DNA of 64,000 nt from Mustelus asterias. Its lineage: Eukaryota. The stretch covers positions 496,001 through 560,000 of the forward strand of contig NW_027590255.1 of NCBI RefSeq assembly GCF_964213995.1. Direction: 5' to 3'. Both the position numbers and the translations under genes were made by a program. A model generated the notes under the pieces. That model searched no databases, was not told the origin of the DNA, and was given only the letters and a program-made list of their open reading frames with translations. Of the stretch, positions 2,627-63,575 are shown one piece after another; the stretch's first letter is position 1, and every line of letters begins with the position of its first letter.

Positions 2627-5600
2627 AGGACCCCGAGGGTGGTAGTCTCAGGATTGCTGCCTGAGGAACATGCCAGTGAGGGCAGGAGTGGGATGCTTGG
2701 GCGGATGAACACGTGGCTCAGGAACTGGTGCAGGGGGCAGGGTTTCCAGTTCTTGGATCATTGGGACCTCTTCTGGGGCAGGTGGGACCTGTACAAGAGA
2801 GACGGGTTACACCTAAACTACAAGGGGACCAATATACTTGCAGGGAGATTTGCTAGTGTTATTGGGGAGCGTTTAAACTAGATTTGCAGGGGGGTGGGAA
2901 CCAGAGTGCCAGAGCAGATAGTGGAGCAGGGGTAAAAAGACAGGTTAGTTAAAGCAAAATCACAAATGGAAGGGTAGAGTGTGGTGGAAATAATTTTTTG
3001 AGGTGTGTCTATTTCAATGCCAGGAGTATTGTAGGGAAGGCAGATGAGCTGAAGGCGTGGATAGACACGTGGAAATATGACATTATAGCCATTAGTGAAA
3101 CTTGGCTACAGGAGGGGCAGGACTGGCAGCTCAATGTTCCAGGGTTCCAATGTTTCAGGCGGGATAGAGGCAGAGGGATAAAAGGTGGGGGGGTGGCATT
3201 GTTGGTCAGGGAAAATGTTACAGCGGTACTCAGGCAGGATAGATTAGGGAGCTTGTCTACAGAGGCCCTATGGGTGGAGCTGAGAAACAGGAAAGGTATG
3301 ACCACATTAATGGGCTTGTATTATAGACCACCCAATAGTCAGCGAGAATTGGAGGAGCAAATCAGCGGAGAGATAGCTGACAACTGCAAGAAACACAAAG
3401 TTGTGATAGTGGGGGATTTTAATTTTCCACATATAGATTGGGACTCGCATACTGTTAAAGGTTTAAACGGGGTAGAGTTTGTAAAATGTGTTCAGGAGAA
3501 TTTTCTACATCAGTATATAGAGGTGCCAACTAGAGAGGATGCGATATTGGATCTCCTATTGGGAAATGAGTTAGGGCAGGTGATGGATGTGAGTGTGAGG
3601 GAACACTTTGGATCCAGTGATCATAATGCCATTAGTTTCAACCTAATTGTGGATAAGGATAGATCTGGTCCTCGGGTTGAAGTTCTGAACTGGAAAAAGG
3701 CCAAATTTGATGAAATGAGAAGGGATCTGGGAAGTGTGGATTGGCACAGGCTGTTCTCTGGTAAGGATGTAAATGGAAAGTGGGAGGCCTTCAAAGGAGA
3801 AATTTTGAGAGTGCAGAGTTTGTATGTTCCTGTCAGGATGAAAGGCAAAGTAAATAGGAATAAGGAACCTTGGTTCTCGAGGGAGATTGTCACACTGATT
3901 AAGAGGAAGAGAGAGTTGTATGAAATGTACAGGCAGCAAGGAACACATCAGATGCTCGAGGAGTATAAAAAGTGCAAGAAGCTACTTAAGAGGGAAATCA
4001 GGAGGGCTAAAAGAAGACATGAGGTTGCTTTGGCAGACAGAGTGAAGGAAAATCCAAAGAGCTTCTATAGGTATGTTAGGAGCAAAAGGATAGTGAGGGA
4101 TAAAATTGGTCCTCTTGAAGACCAGAGTGGTAGACTGTGTATGGAACCAAAAGTGATGGGGGAGATACTAAATGGTTTTTTTGCATCCGTATTTACTGAG
4201 GAAACGGGCATGGAGTCTACGGAAATAGGGCAAACTGGTAGGGAGGCCATGGAACCTTTACAGATTAGAGGAGAGGAGGTGCTCGCTGTCTTGAGGCAAA
4301 TCAGAGTGGATAAATCCCCAGGACCGGACAGGGTATTCCCACGGACCTTGAGGGAAGCTAGTGTTGAACTTGCAGGGGCCCTGGCAGACATATTTAAAAT
4401 GTCAGTATTCACCGGGGAGGTGCCGGATGATTGGAGGGTGGCTCATGTTGTTCCGTTGTTTAAAAAAGGTTCCAAAAGAAATCTGGGAAATTATCGGCCA
4501 GTAAGTTTGACGTCGGTGGTGGGCAAGTTATTGGAAGGTGTGATAAGGGATAGGATCGACAAATATTTGGATAGACAGGGACTTATTAGGGAGAGTCAAC
4601 ATGGCTTTGTGCGTGGTAAGTCATGTTTGACCAATCTATTAGAGTTTTTCGAGGAGGTTACCAGGAAAGTGGATGAAGGGAAGGCGGTGGATGTTGTCGA
4701 CCTGGATTTCAGCAAGGCCTTTGACAAGGTCCCTCATGGGAGGTTAGTTAGGAAGGTTCAGTTGCTAGGTATACATGGGGAGGTAGTAAATTGGATTAGA
4801 CACTGGCTCAATGGAAGAAGCCAGAGAGTGGTTGTGGAGGATTGCTTCTCCGAGTGGAGGCCTGTGACTAGTGGTGTGCCGCAGGGATCGGTGTTGGGTC
4901 CATTGTTGTTTGTCATCTATATCAATGATCTGGATGATAATGTGGTAAATTGGATCAGCAAGTTTGCTGATGATACAAAGATTGGAGGTGTAGTGGACAG
5001 TGAGGAAGGTTTTCAAAGCTTGCAGAGGGATTTGGACCAACTAGAAAAATGGGCTGAGAAATGGCAAATGGAATTTAACGCAGACAAGTGTGAGATATTG
5101 CACATTGGAAGGACAAACCAAAGTAGAACGGACAGGGTAAATGGTAGGACTCTGAAGAGTGCAGTTGAACAGAGGGATCTGGGAATACAGGTACAGAATT
5201 CCCTAAAAGTGACGTCACAGGTGGATAGGGTCGTAAAGAGTGCCTTTGGTACATTGGCCTTTATAAATCGGAGTATCGAGTATAAAAGTTGGAGTGTTAT
5301 GGTAAGGTTATATAAGGCATTGGTGAGGCCGAATTTGGAGTATTGTGTACAGTTTTGGTCTCCCAGTTACAGGAAGGATGTAAATAAGATTGAAAGAGTG
5401 CAGAGAAGGTTCACAAGGATGTTGCCGGGACTTGAGAAGCTGAGTTACAGAGAGAGATTGAATAGGTTGGGACTTTATTCCCTGGAGCGTAGAAGATTGA
5501 GGGGAGATTTGATAGAGGTGTATAAGATTTTGATGGGTATAGATAGAGTGAATGCAAGCAGGCTTTTTCCGCTGAGGCTGGGGGAGAAAAAAACCAGAGG

Positions 5601-5865
5601 GCATGGGTTAAGGGTGAAAGGAGAAAAGTTTAAAGGGAATATTAGGGGGGGCTTCTTCACGCAGAGAGTGGTGGGAGTGTGGAATGAGCTGCCGGATAAA
5701 GTGGTAAATGCATTTAAGAAAAACTTGGACGGGTTCATGGATGAGAGGGGTGTGGAGGGATATGGTCCAAGTGCAGGTCAGTGGGACTAGGCATAAAATG
5801 GTTCGGCACAGACAAGAAGGGCCAAAAGGCCTGTTTCTGAGCTGTAATTTTTCTATGGTTCTATC
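2624..5865 (+). mobile_element. 5'-truncated CR1-type LINE (end of ORF1, open ORF2, 3' UTR) nested in an older minus-strand CR1
   Basis: ORF1 esterase tail 2639..2881 (DGLHLN), ORF2 2998..5790, tail ttctatggttctat; host LINE is continuous on either side. Confidence 0.95.
2998..5790 (+). CDS. CR1 LINE ORF2: AP endonuclease plus reverse transcriptase (930 aa open frame; no ATG at the called start)
   Basis: YFNARSI, SETWL, VGDFN, SDHN (APE domain); [33 protein letters not shown] (RT domain). Confidence 0.9.
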   Translation: MRCVYFNARSIVGKADELKAWIDTWKYDIIAISETWLQEGQDWQLNVPGFQCFRRDRGRGIKGGGVALLVRENVTAVLRQDRLGSLSTEALWVELRNRKGMTTLMGLYYRPPNSQRELEEQISGEIADNCKKHKVVIVGDFNFPHIDWDSHTVKGLNGVEFVKCVQENFLHQYIEVPTREDAILDLLLGNELGQVMDVSVREHFGSSDHNAISFNLIVDKDRSGPRVEVLNWKKAKFDEMRRDLGSVDWHRLFSGKDVNGKWEAFKGEILRVQSLYVPVRMKGKVNRNKEPWFSREIVTLIKRKRELYEMYRQQGTHQMLEEYKKCKKLLKREIRRAKRRHEVALADRVKENPKSFYRYVRSKRIVRDKIGPLEDQSGRLCMEPKVMGEILNGFFASVFTEETGMESTEIGQTGREAMEPLQIRGEEVLAVLRQIRVDKSPGPDRVFPRTLREASVELAGALADIFKMSVFTGEVPDDWRVAHVVPLFKKGSKRNLGNYRPVSLTSVVGKLLEGVIRDRIDKYLDRQGLIRESQHGFVRGKSCLTNLLEFFEEVTRKVDEGKAVDVVDLDFSKAFDKVPHGRLVRKVQLLGIHGEVVNWIRHWLNGRSQRVVVEDCFSEWRPVTSGVPQGSVLGPLLFVIYINDLDDNVVNWISKFADDTKIGGVVDSEEGFQSLQRDLDQLEKWAEKWQMEFNADKCEILHIGRTNQSRTDRVNGRTLKSAVEQRDLGIQVQNSLKVTSQVDRVVKSAFGTLAFINRSIEYKSWSVMVRLYKALVRPNLEYCVQFWSPSYRKDVNKIERVQRRFTRMLPGLEKLSYRERLNRLGLYSLERRRLRGDLIEVYKILMGIDRVNASRLFPLRLGEKKTRGHGLRVKGEKFKGNIRGGFFTQRVVGVWNELPDKVVNAFKKNLDGFMDERGVEGYGPSAGQWD

Positions 5866-22973: not shown

Positions 22974-24206
22974 ACTCACCGCTTCACAGAGAGAGCATTG
23001 ACCAGGGGACGGGGGCTGGGACAGGCTGTTCAGTGTTTGAGATGCATGTTTGTTTTGTTTAGGTTACAGTGCGGGAATCACCGAATTTAACATTTCATTT
23101 GGAGCAGCGATGCGGATTGTTTTTGAAATTTTTAAGTGGATTGTCGAAGCAGCCCCCAGTTGACATGTGCCCTCAGTGAAACTCCACATCACTCCTGTTT
23201 AATCACTGTGTTTGGATAGAGTTTATCAAAGCTTTCTCTGGAATAGCGGAGTTTAGTAGCAGCAGCCGGTGAATCGTTCACTGGAACCAGTCCCAGTTGT
23301 GCTGCTATTTGCCCCCAGACGGTTGTTTCCTGCACTGAAACTGACGCTTTGTGAAACTGATCAGTTTCCGCTCAGTCATTCACAAACCCGCAATTCCCGC
23401 AGTTTGAGCCGCTCCAACCCCAGCCTGCTTCTGATTGGCCATCCTCTCCGCATTCGCAGCTCTGAACCAATCGCAGAGCATCGAATGTGAACATTGAGCC
23501 AATCATTGGCTTCAACTGTCAACCGGCAGAAATTTTGAATTGGGAGGAAATGCCGCCAATTTCAGCGCGGGAAAGGGAATTGAGACAAATTCTTAACTTA
23601 TTAAAAATAGATTCTCAATTAATATTCTGCTATAAGATTATTTTACAAAGAGGTTTCATTTGTGAACATTTGTCCGCCACGGGCAGCAAACGACTCTATT
23701 CAGAAATGTCAAACGGGACAAATATGAAGTCACTCTCTGTAACAAACAACAGACTCAACCCCTTTCACACCGGCTTCAGGGAGACACAGAGAAGCGACTG
23801 ATTTCTGATCCTTTCCCCCGAAAACGGCGGCGAATGTTACAAGCGACAGGAGAGGGGAAATCTGAATGGGCTGGAGAGGAAAGGGACAGGGATCGAGTGG
23901 AACAGCGTGAGATTCTGGGAATGAACAGCCCAGAGAGCGGGAAAAGGGTCGAAAGCACGAAGTGGGGGGAGATAGACTTCAAATCTTCAATGTTTCTGGG
24001 AATTATCTTATGAAGGACGGAATGAAGACTTATTTTATACAAACGGTTATTTCCTGCACAGAAAACGGCCCAATTTCTGAAAGGGGCGGTTAAGAAAACA
24101 ACTGAACCAATCAGAACCTGAGTTACAGACATTAATTCGCTGGTCACAGTTTGATTGAAACTTCCTGGGCCAATTCCCGCTGGGGGCGGTCCCTCACACA
24201 GTTTAA

Positions 24207-24689
<483 letters not shown>

Positions 24690-24718
24690 AACCCGACATC
24701 AGCACCAAGAACAACAAC

Positions 24719-24734
24719 GGCTCTTTTAAGAGCC
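24719..24734 (+). terminator. Histone 3' stem-loop (H3)
   Basis: aacGGCTCTTTTAAGAGCCacc, then gaaagagct downstream element. Confidence 0.93.
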
Positions 24735-25424
24735 ACCAAATCGGCAAATGAAAGAGCTGCGATCTCCTGTTAACGATTCTAGTGTTTCAATTCCCAGGAC
24801 AGAATATTCCCAGGACTCCAGTACTGAAACCTCTCAATGTTACAATTCATTCTCCGTTGCATTGGGGTCACTCATATCTCCAATCCTTAGATGGTTAGAG
24901 TAAAAACGATGCCGTTAACAGTTCTACCGCAATTCAATTTTAAAGTAGTTTTATTAAACCTGCGATCATTTCAGTTTCCGAGCAATAATTCCGCAAATCC
25001 ACTTTCTCCGCACGTGTTTCGAGTTGCAGCGAGAGTGTTGAAAATTGTGTCAATTAAGTTCAGAATATGAAGCATGTCTCCAACAGTAACCCACTCACAC
25101 AGATGTAGCCATTGCAGGAACACTTGCACATTCGCATAGACAATAATTAACACTTTTCCAGATCCAGTGACTGACTTTGAAAACCGATGGGCTGCAGATG
25201 AATATCCTCGCAGACTTTCACATTTTAAAGCAATTATATTTGAAATTGGATCATTTTAGTTCACTGGGATTGTTTCCCCGATAAACAGCAGCAACTTGTA
25301 TTAAAATACTGTCTGTGTCAATCGTACGGATTGAGAGAACAAAGCGGGAAACAGCTGTGCTGTGAATAGCAGTGCAGAAACTGACCGATAGACACCAGGT
25401 CGCCCTTTTTCAGATAAAGTGAGT

Positions 25425-25440
25425 GGCTCTGAAAAGAGCC
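25425..25440 (-). terminator. Histone 3' stem-loop (left H2A)
   Basis: Reverse complement aaaGGCTCTTTTCAGAGCCactca. Confidence 0.92.
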
Positions 25441-25470
25441 TTTGGGTTATCAGATTAAAGAATGGTCGCT

Positions 25471-26187
<717 letters not shown>

Positions 26188-40812: not shown

Positions 40813-41115
40813 ACCAAGGAAAAAGATCATAACTAAAATAATTGTGGCTGCAATTCGACTTTTTGAACTTTTGCAGCAACCATTCACTCCCTTGTATAAT
40901 CTGTCTAATTCAGCCTAGAACATATTCAATGATCCAGTCTCAACTGTTGTCTGGGGAAGGGAATTCCACTGACTAACTATCCTCTGAGATGAGATGAGAG
41001 TGACTGCCCTCGACATCAAAACAGGATTTGACCGAGTTCAGCATCAAGGATCCTCAGCAAAAGCAAAGTCGATGGGAATCATGGAAACCTCTCCACTGGT
41101 TAGAACTTCATCCAC

Positions 41116-41232
41116 AGTAAGAAGTTTAACAACACCAGGTTAAAGTCCAACAGGTTTATTTGGTAGCAAAAGCCACACAAGCTTACGAGGCTGTAAGCCC
41201 CTTCTTCAGGTGAGTGGGAATTCTGTTCACAG
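41116..41232 (-). mobile_element. PLE terminus with a hammerhead-like motif (GAAA mutated to GTAA)
   Basis: Minus strand reads ccactcacCTGAAGAaggggcttacagcctcGTAAgcttgtgtgg...aataaacctgttggactttaacctggtgttg. Confidence 0.8.
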
Positions 41233-42549
41233 AATGTCAGACAGTAACACAACCTATTAGCTCACCCCCACCCCCCCATTCCAGACCATGTGATCTCCAG
41301 GGAGAGGCGAAAACCCAGAGTGAAAACCCCAGGGCCAATATGGGGAAAAAAAAAATCTGGGAAATTCCTCTCCGACCCCCTGAGGCGATCGAAACGAGTC
41401 CAGGAGATCACACTGGCCCTGATCGGAAAATTCATTCTGTATCTGAGTCTCATTGTGTGTCTGTCCAAAGGTGGTGCATGTGACTGCATGTAGTAATAAT
41501 TCTCTTCTTGGTGGTATTAGTTTTATTTTTGTTTGTATCGCTCTCATCCACAATATCAGTGTGTTCATTTTATTCTGTATCTGTCAGTCTCTGTACCTGT
41601 ATTTCAGTGCATGTGTTGCAGGACGGCAGTGGAATCACACACTGACTCTGTTTGACTGTTCTTCCTTTGCGCTTGATAAGCAATTGATAAAATACTCAAT
41701 GTATAGTGTATTTTCTATCTATCCTCTTAAATTTAATCAACATTTTTCCTTCTGACAGGCAAAGAGTTGAAACCAGCAGAATAAATGGAGCGATTCTTTC
41801 ACACAAGGTGAATTACAGCCAGCTCCTCACACACAGTAAGTGTCACTCACACACACAGCAGAGATGGCCAAGAGGTTCACTTGCTGGAGTTCTGATCCAT
41901 TGTGCTCTGCAAGCACAGGCCCCAAGCACAACATTGTTGTTGGTTTATGGTTCAGTCGTCTGGTTGGTGAGGGTTTCAACTAAATTGGCAGCGGGTTCGA
42001 CACCAGCATATAGAAGTAGCAGAAAGGAATAAGGGCAGAAAGGAGGGAGAGTGATGGATAATACTGGAGAAGGAGCAGACTAAGAAGCATTGAAGTTAGT
42101 CCTCTTCCAATTTAGAATGTCGACTTTAGATTGTTCCTTGCTAATGTCAAGCTTGTGATCCAATGATCACTGGATAAAAACACAGACACTTAATTCATGT
42201 GGCCAACCTTGGCCCACCCCATTCCCCAGCACCAGATCCAGCAATACTTTGTTCATAGTTTCTTGAGAATACTCTGGTCCAAGAAATTCTCTTGAACATA
42301 TTTGAAAATTCCCAGACAGATGAATGTATGAATTAGGAGCAGGTGTAGGCCACTTGGCCCCTTGCGCCTGCTCCACCATTCAATATGATCATGACAGGTC
42401 TGATTGTAACTCCAAACCCACATCCTTACCTATCCCCGATAATCTTTCACCTCCTTGCTTCCTCATAGCACCAGGGAGCCCGGTTCAATTCCAACCTTGG
42501 GTGACTGTCTGGAATTTGCACATTCTCCCTGTGTCAACATTTGTTCCTC

Positions 42550-44773: not shown

Positions 44774-45613
44774 GTGCAGGTTAGGTGGATTGACCATGCT
44801 AACTTGCTTCTTTGTGTCCCAAGATGTGTAGGTTAGGGGGATTAGCAGGGTAAATGCATGGGGTTACAGGGATGCAGCAAGGAGTGGGCCTCAGAAAGAT
44901 GCTCTGTTGGAAAATCAGTGCTAACCCGAGGGGCCAAATGGCCTTCGTCGACACTGTAGGTATTCTATGATTTTCTATCCATCTCTGCAATCAAAATATT
45001 GAAAGATTTTGCTTGCTTTGCCTTTTGAGGAAGGGAGTTCCATCGACACACAACCCTCTGAGAGAAAATAATCTCGCCTCATCTGTGCCTCAAATGAATG
45101 ACCCTTTATTTTTAAACAGTGACCCCTCATTCTAGATTCTCCCACAAGAGGAAATATGCTCTTCATATCCATCCTGTCAAGACCACTCAGATCTGTAAAG
45201 TTTCAATCAAGTCGACACTTACTCTTCTAACCTCTCGCCTGCAAATTTATCCCCTCCAACATGTCCTCATGAGACAACCCGCTCCTTCCTGGTATTAATC
45301 CCGTAAACCTTCTCTGAACTGTTTCAAGCACATCTACATATTTAGCTGAAGCTAAACGAAGCATGTTATTTATTGGGAAAGTTATTATATATTATCTTTA
45401 TTTGTTCTAGCAAGTAGTCTCACAATACCAGGTTAAAGTCCATCTGGATTGTTTGGTGGCATGAGCTTTCAGCGCCTGCTCCTTGTTGGAGTGTAACCGG
45501 GGACAACTTTGATTGGATGTAATGTGACCAATGGGAACAAGATGTAAGGGTCAGCTGACCCAAAAAAGCATGGAACCAATCACAGAGTGATGTAATAGTC
45601 AGCTGATGAGCTG

Positions 45614-45942
45614 ATTCATTCTTGGCCTTTTGGCTGAGATCAGGTGTAGTATGGTCGGCTGCGCTTGGTTGAGGTCATTGGGTTGCACTGAAGCTTCGTG
45701 TGTTTCATATGAAGCAATTTTTTAAAAGCGGCATCTCGGCCTTTTGGCTAAGATGCAAATGAGCTCAAGTCTTGGAGGAGGAACCTCCCCCTTCTCCAAT
45801 CAGCTTGGCTCATGTAGATCAGGCCCAGGACAGGGTGATTTGGTCACTCGCCCTCTCTTGTCAGCCTGGATCTGAAATGTCTCAACTTGTTGAGACTCTG
45901 AATTGGATTTGATTTGATTGAATTGGAAAAGTATAAAAAAAA
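45614..45942 (+). mobile_element. U2 snRNA-headed, poly(A)-tailed short element (candidate SINE), copy 2
   Basis: Diverged U2 nt 1-39 at 45614-45652, internal gcatctcggccttttggctaagatgc, body colinear with copy 1, A-run 45935-45942. Confidence 0.8.
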
Positions 45943-45970
45943 TATATGCCCTGTTTGTGAACCCAATTCT

Positions 45971-46012
45971 CCACTCACCTGAGGAAGGAGAAGTGCTCCG
46001 AAAGCTCATGCT
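45971..46012 (+). ncRNA. Minimal type I hammerhead ribozyme-like motif in a PLE terminus
   Basis: cacCTGAGGAa-GGAG-aagtg-CTCC-GAAAgct-c-atg: core boxes, stem II and palindromic AGCT stem III. Confidence 0.6.
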
Positions 46013-46139
46013 ACCAAATAAACCTGTTCGACTTGAACCTGGTGTTGTGAGACTTCTTACCGTGCCCACCCCAGTCCAATGCCGGCATCACGACATCTGA
46101 TTTGTTCTAGTATAAGGTGTAAATTTTACATTGAAGACA

Positions 46140-50615: not shown

Positions 50616-51064
50616 CCCCCAGCCCCCCCCCCCCCAGCCCCCACCACCCCCCCCCAGCCCCCACCACCCCCCCCAGCCCCCACCACCCCCCCCCCCAGCC
50701 CCCACCACCCCCCCCCAGCCCCCACCCCCCCCCAGCCCCCACCCCCCCCCAGCCCCCACCACCACANNNNNNNNNNNNNNNNNNNNNNNNNNNNNNNNNN
50801 NNNNNNNNNNNNNNNNNNNNNNNNNNNNNNNNNNNNNNNNNNNNNNNNNNNNNNNNNNNNNNNNNNNNNNNNNNNNNNNNNNNNNNNNNNNNNNNNNNNN
50901 NNNNNNNNNNNNNNNNNNACCCCCACCCAGCCCCCACCACCCCCCCAGCCCCCACCACCCCCCCCCAGCCTCCACCACCCCCCCCCAGCCCCCACCACCC
51001 CCCCCCAGCCCCCACCACCCCCCCCCCCCCCCAGCCCCCACCAACCCCCCCCCCAGCCCCCACC
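50616..51064. repeat. C-rich tandem repeat (cccccagcccccaccacc)n spanning an assembly gap (50767-50918)
   Basis: Visible directly; the G-rich minus strand has many runs of 3 or more G. Confidence 0.95.
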
Positions 51065-51494
51065 ACGTGCTCTCATTTTCTTTATTTGCCTCTGGTGTGG
51101 AACCATATCAAGGCTTGTAGCCAGTAATATCCAATTCTGATTCCACTGCTTCTTGCAGTCAGCTTTTTGTTTTAGCAACAATGTCAATGTGGCTGCTGCT
51201 CATCAAACTTATTCCCCTTCCACACGCCCAGATACTGTACACTGCCAGCTCCCGGTGATGGGCGGAAGTAAAGCAGAGCAGTTGGTGCTGGTGAGGAAGG
51301 GGAAATGTATGAACAGTATCAGCAGTCTGATAGAGTGATGTGGGATTAGCAGCAGAGAGAATGCGCTGGTGCGGCAGAGGGAGTGAGAGAGTCAGTGGGT
51401 TGGGTGGATCGGGGCGGACAAGGGGAAAGGACGGATTGACAACAGACTGGTTGCTGCTCAAATCCACAAACTCTGTGTTTGTGTATCTGAACTA

Positions 51495-51605
51495 ACCAAT
51501 CAGAGAGAGAGCGTCACGAATTGACATCATTGTGAATGAGCCAATGGGGAACAGGGCTTTCAGCAATCCTTCATTAGCATAGGCCTCTGCTTTGGTCTAT
51601 AAAAG
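51495..51605 (+). promoter_or_regulatory. H2B promoter: CCAAT boxes, octamer-like ATTAGCAT, TATA
   Basis: ccaat at ~51496 and 51541, attagcat at 51573-51580, tataaaa at 51598. Confidence 0.8.
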
Positions 51606-51656
51606 AGGAGTTCCGAGCGCGACTCAGTGATTCTGTGTCTGAAATTAACTGTGACA

Positions 51657-52031
51657 ATGGTGGATGAGAAGAAAGCAGCTCCTAAGAAGGGGGCGAAGAA
51701 AGTGATTAAGAAACCGGTAATAAAGGGCGGCAAGAAGCGGCGAAAGTCGAGGAAGGAGAGTTACTCCATCTACATCTACAAAGTGATGAAGCAGGTTCAC
51801 CCCGACACCGGCATCTCCTCCAAGGCCATGAGCATCATGAACTCGTTCGTGAACGATATTTTCGAGCGCATCGCGGGTGAGGCTTCCCGCCTGGCCCATT
51901 ACAACAAGCGCAGCACCATCAGCTCCCGGGAGATCCAGACCGCCGTGCGCCTGCTGCTGCCCGGGGAACTGGCCAAGCACGCCGTGTCGGAAGGGACAAA
52001 GGCGGTGACTAAGTACACCAGCTCCAAGTAA
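51657..52031 (+). CDS. H2B: Histone H2B
   Basis: [12 protein letters not shown]...[27 protein letters not shown]...TKYTSSK; stem-loop downstream. Confidence 0.98.
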
Positions 52032-52067
52032 AACTCCCCATGGACTGAAAAACATCCCAAACACAAC

Positions 52068-52083
52068 GGCTCTTTTAAGAGCC
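52068..52083 (+). terminator. Histone 3' stem-loop (H2B)
   Basis: aacGGCTCTTTTAAGAGCCact. Confidence 0.93.
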
Positions 52084-53079
52084 ACTCTCAATCTCCCTGA
52101 AAAAGCTGTATCATCCATTTAGTTTCAATTAATCTTTCACTCTGAAGCGTCTCGAACAATCTAATTGTTGTTTTTACTGTTGATCAATGATAGGTACTGA
52201 GTAATGCAAGTTGATCGCCCAGCGTCTGATTAATAATGTTTCATGAATTAATTAATTGGTTTCCGACCGCCTCTGCACTTAGATCTCAGAGGCCCGTTTC
52301 CCCGACTTTAGCGAGAGAGAGAGCTAATGGAGCAAATGTGTCAGCTTCCAATTCTGTTCCAGTTTGGTCTTAATAATCGATCAGTTTATTCCCTATCAGC
52401 CCCGATTGTGCAGGAACCTGAGTCTCGGCACTGGTCAATTTACACCGAAAATGTTCACTCCCCTCTTGATTCTCACGAATATGGAGAACATCCCGTCCGT
52501 TTACAGAACGATGTCAATGAGACTTTCTGGCGGCGAGTTCGAGAGTTTTAAAAAGGGCCGAGATTAACCCCGAATGGATCCAGGATTCTAAAAGCAAATC
52601 TGCAACTTGGGATAAAATGTGAAATGGTGCAAACACAGACTGATGTTTTAAACACTTTGTTGTTCAACAGTTAATTATTGAGAGATTTTATTTGAAATGT
52701 ATTTCTTGTTTTATAAATATATCTGCGAACTTTTCAAAAATGAATAGTGAAAATTTTGTTATTTTCGACTTATTTTCCGAAAAACCCAGGCTGAAAATCA
52801 GAAACTGCCAGATCCAGGTTAACTATAGACTGGGGAAGGAGAGAAAGGGAGATTCTTAGCTTACTCAAAATTAATTAACCATTACCTATTCGTATAATTT
52901 TCGAAACTCTTGTTCTTTCCGCTTTGGCGGCTTTTACAGTTTGAAATGAAATCGGTTGGAATCTGAGATTTTGGCGCCGTTATTTTCCGCTATCACTCCG
53001 TGGGCTCTCCGGATTGGTGCGTTAAGCAGATTTCTGATTGGTCATATGAACAAGATGCTGAGAGGCAGCAACAAAGTGA

Positions 53080-53571
<492 letters not shown>

Positions 53572-53601
53572 AGCGACCATTCTTTAATCTGATAACACAA
53601 A

Positions 53602-53617
53602 GGCTCTTTTCAGAGCC
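53602..53617 (+). terminator. Histone 3' stem-loop (right H2A)
   Basis: aaaGGCTCTTTTCAGAGCCactca. Confidence 0.95.
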
Positions 53618-55256
53618 ACTCACTTTTTCTGGAAAAGGGCGATCTATTGTTTGCCCCTCAGATGCTGCGCTGCTATTCACAGTCCAGCTGTTTCCCGCTT
53701 TGTTTTATCAATCCGGAGTTCCCCCTGTGTACGATAGTAAATAGACCCCATCAGTCTCGCAGCAGATAGAGGAATTCATCAGGCGAATACACCATCCACA
53801 TTACGATAGTATTGTCACAGGCAGTATTTTAATGCATGCAAGTTGCTGTTTTGTATTAATAGTTGATATCTGGAACTGGGGTTCTGATTTCAGTTAATCA
53901 ACAATTTCATTTGCGCCGTTTTTTGTGCAGCAAATAACCATCTGTGCAAACTAAGACTTTATTCCATTCTTACACAGATTGTTACAGGTACAGAGAGGAT
54001 TTGAAGTCTATCTTCCGCCACTTAGTGCGTTAGACTCGATCTCCGACCCTTTTCTCTCAAGCCCATTCAGATTTAACACATAAACTCACAGGATCAGTGA
54101 AAGGGCTGCTTGCTGGCAGCAGGGAGTCAGAGATGGAGTTATTGTCACGGTGGATTGATCTGTTTCTGATTTGTTTACTGATGTTTTCAGTTCCCTCTCT
54201 ATATTGAGCTCAAGTGAATAATTGAACGACATGGTGTCAGAATCAAGGTTTTTATAAATCCTTCAGTTTGCTTCATACCGAGTCCATCCCGGTGCATTAT
54301 CGACAACAAGGAAGAATTTCGCAGTTGGAGAATTATATATTTTCCTCTGTCGGATGATCTGGGCGTCGCTCCCGGAACAGAGTAAAGGCGGAAATGAAGA
54401 GGTTATTCTCGGGCTGATCTGTTTATTCCGCAGCTTTCCCAGAGGACGGAATCAGCGAGATTTCTGCACACACAGGACCTGAGTCCATTGCAACGCTTTA
54501 AGATCTGCCTCCCCCCGGCGCTCCCTATTCTCCAGACACAAAGCTGCCTGTTCCACCGGCGGGATCGGGCCGGGGATTCTCTCCGCACTTCCCATTGTAA
54601 CATTCCCGGCCGCTTTCAGGGGATAGGATCAGAAATCAGCCGTTTCCCTCTGTCCCTGTGAAGCCTGTGTGAAGGAGTTGGTTGGTGATCTCCATGTTTC
54701 TGCTTTTCCACTGAGCTGAGATTTGCTCCGTTTTAAATTGCTGAACGGGGTCTGATTACCGCGGGTTATAGATAAGAGATTGAGAAATTTAAACTGTTCC
54801 TAAAATAGCGCCAGGATTCTGTGGCGGAAAATACAATAAACAGATTATAAAGTGTGAGATTGAAATAGTTTCCTGAACATTCAGGCGTTCCGTTATTTTG
54901 TATTTTTCCTGCACTGAAATTGGCGGGTTTTTCCAGTTTGAAAATGTGAACCAATCAAAACCTCCCATTTCTTCTCCCTGGCTCTCCGATTGGTTACGAA
55001 TCTGATTGAAATGTGAGTGACCAATCAGAGCTCGAGTCTGGCTGCAGCCTCACAAACCGCTCACAATGATTATTAATAGAGATTAAACTGACGGAATCTG
55101 TATCTTCTCTCTCACCTGTACTTGAATTTTAAAATATACTTTGTTTCCACAGACAAATTATTGAAGGAAAGTGAATAAATGTGATGTCTCCTCCACGCAA
55201 GTTACAGGGAAGTGAGTCGCCAGCTCCTTCTCACGTTGTCTCTGACGGAGCTCAGA

Positions 55257-56490
55257 CAGTAAGAAGTCTCACAACACCAGGTTAAAGTCCAACAGGTTTA
55301 TTTGGCAGCACAAGCTTTTGGAGTCTCAGGCTCCTTCAGGTGAGTGAGAAGCTGTGTTCACAAACAGGGCACATACAGGCACAAACTCAATTTACAAGAT
55401 AATGGTAAGAATGCGAGTCTTTACAGGTAATCAAGTCTTAAAATTACAGACAGTGTAAGTGGAGAGAGGGCCAAGCACTGGTTAAAGAGGTGTGTATTGT
55501 CTCCAGCCAGGACAGTTATTGATATTTTGCCCAGGCAAGTTGTGGGGGTTACAGGTAGTGTGACATGATTCCAAGGTCCCGGTTGAGGCCGTCCTCATGC
55601 GTGCGGAACTTGGCTATCAGTTTCTGCTCAGTGATTCTGCATTGTCATGTGTCGTGAAGGCCACCTTGGAGAATGCTTACTCGAAGATCAGAGGTTGAAT
55701 GCCCATGACTGCTGAAGTGTACCCCGACAGGAAGGAAGCACTCCTGCCTGACGATTGTTGAGCGGTGTTCATTCATCCGTTGTCATAGTGTCTGCATAGT
55801 CTCTCCAATGTGCCATGCCTTGGGACATCCTTTCCTGCAGCGTGTCAGGTAGACAACATTGGCCAACTCGCAAGAATATGTACCGTGTACGTGGTGGATG
55901 GTGTTCTCATGTGAGATGATGGCATCAGTGTCAATGATCCGGCACATTTACCGAGGTTGCTGTGGCAGGGTTGTGTGGTGTCGTGGTCAATGTTCTCCTG
56001 AATGCTGGGTAATTTGCTGCAGACAATGGTCTGTTTGAGGTTATGCGATTGTTTGAAGGCGAGAAGTGAGGGTGTGGGGATGGCCTTGGCGAGATGTTCG
56101 TCTTCATTCTTGACATGTTGAAGGCTCCGGAGAAGATGTCGTAGCTTCTCCGCTCTGGGGAAGGATTGGACAATGAAGGGTACTCTGTCTATCGTGTCCT
56201 GTGTTTGTCTTCTGTGGCACATCGGAACTGTCGATCAATGAGTCGAGCACCATATCCTGTTGTTATGAGGGCATCTTTCAGCGTCTGTAGGTGTCTGTTG
56301 CAATACTCCTCATCTGAGCAGATCCTGTGTATGCAGAGGGCTTGTCCACAGAGGACGGCTTCTTTAACGTGTATAGGATGGAAGCTGGAGAAGTGGAGCA
56401 TCATGAGGTTATCCACGTGCTTGCGGTACAGTGAAGTGCTGAGGTGACCGTCCTTGATGGAGATGCGTATGTCCAAGAATGCAACCAATT
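55257..56490 (-). mobile_element. 5'-truncated Penelope-like retroelement (RT C-terminus, GIY-YIG endonuclease, 3' terminus)
   Basis: ORF 56189..56506 FLDIRI...TSLYRK...LHFSSFHP...GQALCIHRICS; ANVVYLTRCRKGCPKAWHIGET readable on the minus strand at ~55800-55870; terminus matches the mini-insertions. Confidence 0.9.
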
Positions 56491-63418: not shown

Positions 63419-63575
63419 CAATAAGAAGTCCCACATCACCAGGTTAAAGTCCAACAGGTTTATTTGGTAGCACAAGGTTTACTTAGTAGTAAAATAAACC
63501 TGTTGGACTTTAACCTGGTGTTGTAAGACTTCTTATTGTGCTTACCCCCCAGTCCAACCCCAGCATCTCCACATC
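63419..63575. mobile_element. Fold-back mini-insertion made of PLE termini
   Basis: Inverted arms plus tail; 12-bp direct repeat acattctctgaa at 63407-63418 and 63576-63587; absent from the paralogous site at ~26690. Confidence 0.85.

Follow-up and report, generated by a model that had tools for sequence, protein, structure and literature searches.

Between positions 45400 and 46110 of the window (the whole 64-kb stretch of Mustelus asterias DNA analysed here), an inverted and a direct end of a Penelope-like element (PLE) enclose DNA of another kind. The locus raises the question of whether this cargo was brought in by the PLE as it integrated, or settled later between two ends that were already in place. 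The original prediction favoured the former, by way of template switching during insertion.

Layout of the composite unit

The unit and the two copies elsewhere in the window with which its parts were compared comprise the following features.

45400..45410, + strand: left target-site duplication (TSD), 11 bp, exact repeat
45412..45484, - strand: inverted PLE 3' end, tail-less, 5'-truncated inside hammerhead helix II and lacking the CTGANGA core
45485..45613, + strand: 129-bp promoter-like segment, with a TGATTG-N12-CCAAT module at 45510-45532
45614..45652, + strand: U2 snRNA-derived head, U2 nt 1-39 (Rfam U2, clear match from 45619)
45653..45942, + strand: body of the U2-headed element, with a 21-nt U2-like stretch at 45734-45754 and an A8 tail at 45935-45942
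45943..46099, + strand: direct PLE 3' end, 157 nt, with the optional ~35-nt tail
45976..46010, + strand: minimal hammerhead motif as defined in the available text of PMC4209133, core 45979-46006 intact
46100..46110, + strand: right TSD, 11 bp, exact repeat
25861..26187, - strand: second U2-headed element (comparator), no TSD, A8 tail joined to the start codon of a histone H2A gene
55257..56490, - strand: 5'-truncated, broken PLE (comparator) with remains of RT thumb, CCHH and GIY-YIG, motifs read by eye

The sequence ATTTGTTCTAG is found at 45400-45410 and again at 46100-46110 with 11 of 11 positions identical, and these are its only two occurrences in the window. The DNA flanking the unit matches the rest of the window only as weak repeats. 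The probability that an exact 11-mer stands at the expected positions by chance is 4e-7; a common 11-mer was present in 11 of 8909 window pairs placed 700 bp apart, a count in which the unit itself was left in. The cargo between the PLE arms measures 458 bp (the 129-bp segment plus a U2-headed element of 329 bp), in agreement with the ~460 bp predicted to replace the loop of a hairpin, and the predicted succession of TSD, inverted arm, promoter-like DNA, U2-headed element, direct arm and TSD was recovered in full and in place. No 5-mer is common to both sides across the inner junctions of the cargo, which thus has no inner TSD.

The inverted arm and the direct arm are identical at 61 of 73 aligned positions. 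The likeness to the empty PLE hairpins of the window that had been proposed holds for the geometry of the ends in 3 of 3 cases, with the qualification that the arms of the composite are longer and older (arm identities in the hairpins are 54/56, 55/55 and 45/48). As the end geometry is the same, the arms and the outer duplication can be attributed to one integration. The unit is old and probably inert.

PLE identity of the ends

The terminus is continuous with RT-thumb/GIY-YIG coding sequence in the 1.2-kb copy at 55257-56490. The coding remains of this copy have 15 homologues; shark proteins, 75-82% identical, head the list, and two of the homologues have an RT domain. Because the homologues are shark RT proteins, the ends of the unit are truly those of a PLE. 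Pfam searches with the PLE fragments of the window returned nothing relevant and left the fragments unnamed.

Twelve arms of the PLE terminus were aligned from the 64 kb, arranged as four inverted pairs and four solos, six of them tailed and six tail-less. The inverted arms are tail-less in 4 of 4 cases, and all four inverted pairs combine a left arm without the ~35-nt tail with a right arm that has it. TSDs of 11-12 bp, one with a mismatch, flank five of the eight PLE insertions of the window; a search for them at the three minus-strand solos found none. The PLE end at 41113-41465 on the minus strand, which has no tail, belongs to another subfamily whose ~300-bp upstream region is different; a TSD was sought there and not found. 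A 139-bp inverted repeat (94%) at 1478-1921 has outer ends that are PLE-like up to a CTGATGA core and then continue as another repeat, and the PLE hairpin 1627-1788 occupies its exact centre. Among other retroelements, the plus strand carries long open frames of APE/RT-type LINEs at 2953-5790 and 13663-16074 (945 and 803 codons), which suggest young copies.

The hammerhead core pattern has its sole match in the window at 45979-46006, and 23 of 100 shuffles also yield one. In the motif of the direct arm, helix II and helix I each contain a mismatch, that of helix I lying beside the predicted cleavage site. Rfam gave no hammerhead match in the window or in the region of the unit, the minimum free energy fold of the PLE terminus did not display the minimal motif, and folding of the 129-bp segment and the PLE terminus revealed no significant structure (z -1.27 to +0.09). 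Both arms of the composite extend past the predicted cleavage site and both have the helix I mismatch. After the predicted cleavage position both read ATG, against GTG in all four other copies that reach that far, which would lend weak support to one template or one subfamily. The distance to the nearest window copy is 9/51 positions for the inverted arm and 2/51 for the direct arm (Fisher p 0.09, 8 vs 2); this unequal divergence may be a weak hint at different templates or ages. In two of the three empty hairpins (149-300, 1627-1788 and 63421-63575) one arm apparently ends no more than ~1 nt from the predicted cleavage site, the third being ambiguous, and such an arm looks as if it had been templated by cleaved RNA. 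Hammerhead cleavage is described as unnecessary in vitro (PMC11167929).

The U2-headed element

The head of the cargo element matches Rfam U2 with an E value of 1.1e-6 and 41.2 bits, under the gathering score of 46, and its first 5 nt match U2 poorly. Alignment with the second copy of the element gives 297 identities, 26 mismatches and 10 gap positions. That copy, at 26187-25861, is complete at its U2 5' end and at its 3' end; a search for a TSD found none, and no PLE lies beside it. Midway along the element (45614-45942 and 25861-26187) a hairpin precedes the sequence AATTTTT, which is Sm-site-like and is placed by Rfam opposite the Sm region of U2; after its second U2-like stretch the element has an octamer.

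Past the A8 tail of the second copy, homology to an intact H2A gene continues beyond the stem-loop, so the locus is a stretch of genomic DNA whose promoter has been lost. The H2A frame at 26187-25400 (minus strand) has a 1-nt insertion, and no H2B was seen alongside. The H2A promoter at 26187-25400 has been replaced by a truncated stretch that is SINE-like and LINE-like. Histone genes form two dispersed groups in the window (18800-25900 and 51400-53700), interleaved with tRNA genes or pseudogenes; Rfam counts six histone stem-loops and four tRNA matches.

The U2 head stops at U2 nt 38/39, which is the insertion site of Keno and Utopia according to PMC4640811 and PMC6136364. The 3' flanks of both copies are one mismatch away from the hexamer U2 nt 37-42, a register selected after the data were seen, and 169 of 24981 comparable sites (0.7%) are as close. 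A 3' flank that starts at U2 nt 39 or at a TCT look-alike is found in neither of the two copies (three mismatches each in that register). Among 16 off-target Utopia junctions taken from supplement S4 of PMC4640811, most start with TCT and one has TATATG, as here. U2-site retrotransposons, Utopia among them, are described in the same source as rarely leaving a TSD off-target, and the U2-headed element probably has an insertion route of its own that leaves no TSDs. Since the other copy lacks a TSD and off-target U2-site insertions rarely have one, the missing inner TSD is not evidence against nesting, and the use made of it in the original prediction to argue against a later insertion carries no weight. 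No support was found for the suggested link between the U2-headed element and PLEs: nothing special ties the two together in the window, where the other copy adjoins the start codon of a histone H2A gene and has no PLE beside it.

The hallmarks of SINEU that the element displays are a U2-derived head, a short length and a poly(A) tail. It is thus a SINEU-like element in a cartilaginous fish. Our literature search, of partial coverage, found no report of a shark SINEU.

The promoter-like segment

The three CCAAT/ATTGG boxes and two CAGCTG E-boxes that had been noticed in the 129-bp segment were confirmed by position (ATTGG at 45512, CCAAT at 45528 and 45576, CAGCTG at 45552 and 45600). Three boxes within 129 nt are found in 75 of 6388 window stretches, in about 12 regions, so the box count alone is modest and not very rare. 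The pattern TGATTG-spacer-CCAAT, which was picked after the data were seen, was searched on both strands with spacers of 6-21 and occurs three times (24152, 45510 and 55003), in each case with a spacer of 12. The module at 24152 lies upstream of a histone gene read as H3, and the one at 55003 belongs to an orphan histone-promoter-like stretch. Beyond the boxes, comparison of the 129 bp with histone promoters gave motif-kept shuffle p values of 0.03-0.21 in the five best of 14 tests, uncorrected. The segment has no TATA and no octamer. It contains an internal repeat with a spacing of 48 bp (70% over 37 nt), which, together with a TG start at 45492, is a possible LTR U3 feature. The segment looks like real promoter DNA, perhaps of histone type, and an origin from a U2 promoter or an LTR would also be possible.

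Direct homology to the H2A promoter was considered as a candidate and rejected: the match ranks in the top 1% of 1000 windows, but p rises to 0.07 when the CCAAT boxes are kept. A weak PSE-like resemblance ~63 nt upstream of the U2 head may hint at a U2 gene promoter as the source. The available text of PMC5054213 and PMC11541246 holds no usable PSE consensus. Tandem Repeats Finder reported 0 arrays. A histone-promoter-like CCAAT cluster at 54950-55100, with no histone gene seen downstream, adjoins the 1.2-kb PLE copy.

Searches of the window with the 129-bp segment gave best non-self E values of 0.15 (blastn, word 4) and 4.6 (nhmmer --max), and no source locus was found in the 64 kb. Having no copy elsewhere in the window, PLE copies included, the segment is absent from the last 1.2 kb of the PLE present there. 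The original prediction would have fallen if the segment were ordinary PLE sequence; within the 1.2-kb PLE copy of the window it is not, and its foreignness is judged against the PLE copies of the window, that is, the 3' 1.2 kb and the subfamilies seen there. GTDB scans with the segment and with the body of the U2-headed element gave 0 and 0 matches in prokaryote genomes, where shark DNA is not expected, and a protein search with an 84-codon antisense frame over arm, segment and U2 head produced no candidate.

It is improbable that the 129 bp are internal PLE sequence, from an unseen subfamily or a part further upstream, and that the U2-headed element alone is foreign. PLE subfamilies do differ upstream of the hammerhead, as seen in the 55257 and 41113 copies, the window has no full-length PLE, and promoter motifs can occur in pLTRs (PMC3846280). 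Against this, the segment is unlike the 1.2-kb copy or any other PLE copy of the window, similarity of the direct arm to the 55257 copy extends all the way to the A tail, and the double-CCAAT spacing is common to the segment and histone-type promoters.

Origin of the unit

We estimate at roughly 60% the probability that the whole TSD-flanked unit, cargo included, came from one PLE integration event; this value and the weights given to the other explanations are a matter of judgement, not computed. The PLE endonuclease would cut both strands 11 bp apart, and each nick would prime reverse transcription at one of the two start sites of the family, the right one with the tail and the left one without it. 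The two 5'-truncated cDNAs would then be joined head to head, the right-hand one having continued beyond the PLE end to copy the U2-headed element and then the 129 bp. We infer priming from both nicks from in vitro data on an Anolis PLE, for which two RT start sites bounding the tail, cleavage and extension of both strands, and a preference for cleavage at ATT are described (PMC11167929); the TSD of the composite starts with ATT. A precedent is provided by a rotifer, in which a host gene and non-coding DNA lie between pLTRs with TSDs and were mobilised in trans (PMC3846280). Recombination between distant loci is excluded by the intact outer TSD.

For the template of such an event we lean, tentatively, towards a read-through RNA from a source locus in which the parts were already joined, copied in trans, and slightly favour it over a template jump. 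At the source locus, the U2-headed element would have landed in a PLE end by its own insertion, taking the place of the DNA on its 5' side. The second copy of the element exemplifies the kind of junction required, with a complete 3' end, no TSD, and the 5' side of the target replaced by unrelated DNA; the 64-kb window contains no second copy of the composite. Speaking against one template, the arms have a single shared derived base, which could be independent CpG decay, versus 12 mismatches. The junction between the U2-headed element and the PLE, for its part, resembles a U2 target site, which counts against PLE carriage in that it fits nesting in place equally.

Somewhat less likely than the read-through RNA, though to be taken seriously, is later nesting, in which a PLE hairpin came first and the U2-headed element with a 129-bp 5' extension was subsequently inserted near its centre. 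A U2-site-preferring Keno/Tx1-like enzyme would have mobilised it, with target truncation and no TSD, and the 129 bp would stem from the donor locus of the element. Much in the U2-headed element agrees with such a route: both copies lack a TSD, the head terminates at the Keno/Utopia site, and both 3' flanks are within one mismatch of the U2 nt 37-42 hexamer, as are only 0.7% of comparable sites. Off-target Utopia insertions seldom have a TSD, and one of the 16 junctions taken from S4 of PMC4640811 shows the same TATATG flank; SINEU-2 is described with 5' extensions of 31-42 nt and target truncations (PMC4494074). Hairpin centres do accept insertions, as shown by the PLE hairpin 1627-1788 at the centre of another inverted repeat. 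The register, however, is 2 nt off the published junction, and the TCT start of most of the 16 Utopia junctions is seen in 0 of 2 copies here. Nesting also requires a 129-nt extension and a loss of the hairpin centre that spared both arms and the TSD, and no enzyme that would mobilise the element was identified. A template jump in the middle of the insertion is possible but less probable again, and its weight is counted within that of PLE carriage. The PLE RT would have passed from PLE RNA to the poly(A) end of the U2-headed element and then onto or through the 129 bp. A complete, tailed, small-RNA-like element 5' of a 5'-truncated retroelement end has the layout of a template-switch chimera (PMC4494074), template jumps have been proposed for PLEs (PMC3846280), and a second jump may be the reason why the first 5 nt of U2 match poorly. 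Yet the tail junction has an overlap of just 1 nt and the junction of arm and 129-bp segment has none, a random landing on a U2-target-like hexamer is expected in ~0.7% of cases (~2% with three registers), and the other copy of the element has the same kind of junction with no PLE. Two independent PLE stubs that share a chance 11-mer, or an assembly artefact, would account for arms that are only 61/73 identical in a window with two N gaps elsewhere (24560-24688 and 50767-50918); this is very improbable, as the exact 11-mer stands at the expected positions (4e-7), the tail-less left and tailed right arms are arranged as in 3 of 3 hairpins, and diverged arms are not what misassembly yields.

The original interpretation therefore stands in part. 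The two arms and the outer duplication arose in one PLE integration, the cargo is foreign DNA with respect to the 3' 1.2 kb of the PLE seen in the window, and transduction is plausible; template switching during insertion is not established, since an RNA reading through an already joined locus would explain the unit as well, and so would later nesting.

Significance and comparison with known systems

If the cargo came with the PLE event, Penelope-mediated transduction extends from a rotifer to a cartilaginous fish. PLE ends are dense in the window, at 12 arms per 64 kb, and could carry promoter DNA to new sites, and inverted PLE pairs with TSDs constitute a large natural data set for twin priming from two RT start sites. 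With one old copy, neither transduction in a cartilaginous fish nor twin priming is proven. We found no report of PLE transduction in vertebrates in a literature search of partial coverage. It is a long shot that the unit is a member of a recurring composite retroposon made of promoter DNA, U2-headed element and PLE end, mobilised by the PLE in trans and carrying its own upstream promoter. If true, an snRNA-headed element would have gained a heritable Pol II promoter and a PLE as its partner, much as in an SVA assembled around Penelope, and this would have implications for the transcription of SINEU-type elements.

The U2-headed element is likened to SINEU by layout, being short, with a U2-derived head, a repeated U2 fragment and a poly(A) tail (Kojima 2015, PMC4494074). 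The available text of that paper reports SINEU from crocodilians only, with 5' extensions and target truncations; unlike SINEU as described there, the present element has two copies in the window and no Mariner target. With Keno and Utopia (PMC4640811) it shares a U2 head that stops at the insertion site, 3' flanks that resemble the U2 site, and no off-target TSD. It differs from them, as far as described in that source, in being non-coding and in a 3' junction that lies 2 nt upstream of the published register.

The unit itself has much in common with canonical EN+ PLE insertions (Craig et al. 2021, PMC8557442; Frangieh et al. 2024, PMC11167929), namely a tail-less inverted arm, a tailed direct arm, a hammerhead motif and a TSD that starts with ATT; an inverted copy and a tail are described as typical of EN+ PLE insertions in PMC8557442. 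The family shows continuity with an ORF for RT and C-terminal GIY-YIG, the minimal hammerhead motif, the optional tail and the inverted truncated copy. Canonical insertions are described with an inverted 5'-truncated copy and a 30-40 bp tail, whereas the composite has no ORF inside and 458 bp of non-PLE DNA between its arms.

Transduction by a PLE leaves DNA of other origin enclosed by PLE ends and an outer TSD, as in the unit, and the route is not new: it was published for Adineta vaga (Arkhipova et al. 2013, PMC3846280). An empty allele is documented there, and two direct pLTRs with an 8-bp TSD frame the main cargo, a gene that contains introns; non-coding sequences captured between solo pLTRs with TSDs were also noted. 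The unit resembles the Adineta vaga capture in having foreign DNA between direct and inverted PLE ends, a short TSD and no internal PLE sequence. It differs in that it resides in a vertebrate, its arms are truncated and occur only as one inverted and one direct end, and its cargo is non-coding. By analogy, the unit would work like the published PLE capture events, a kind of event already known from rotifers, and the composite is a single old, degenerate instance of a known phenomenon.
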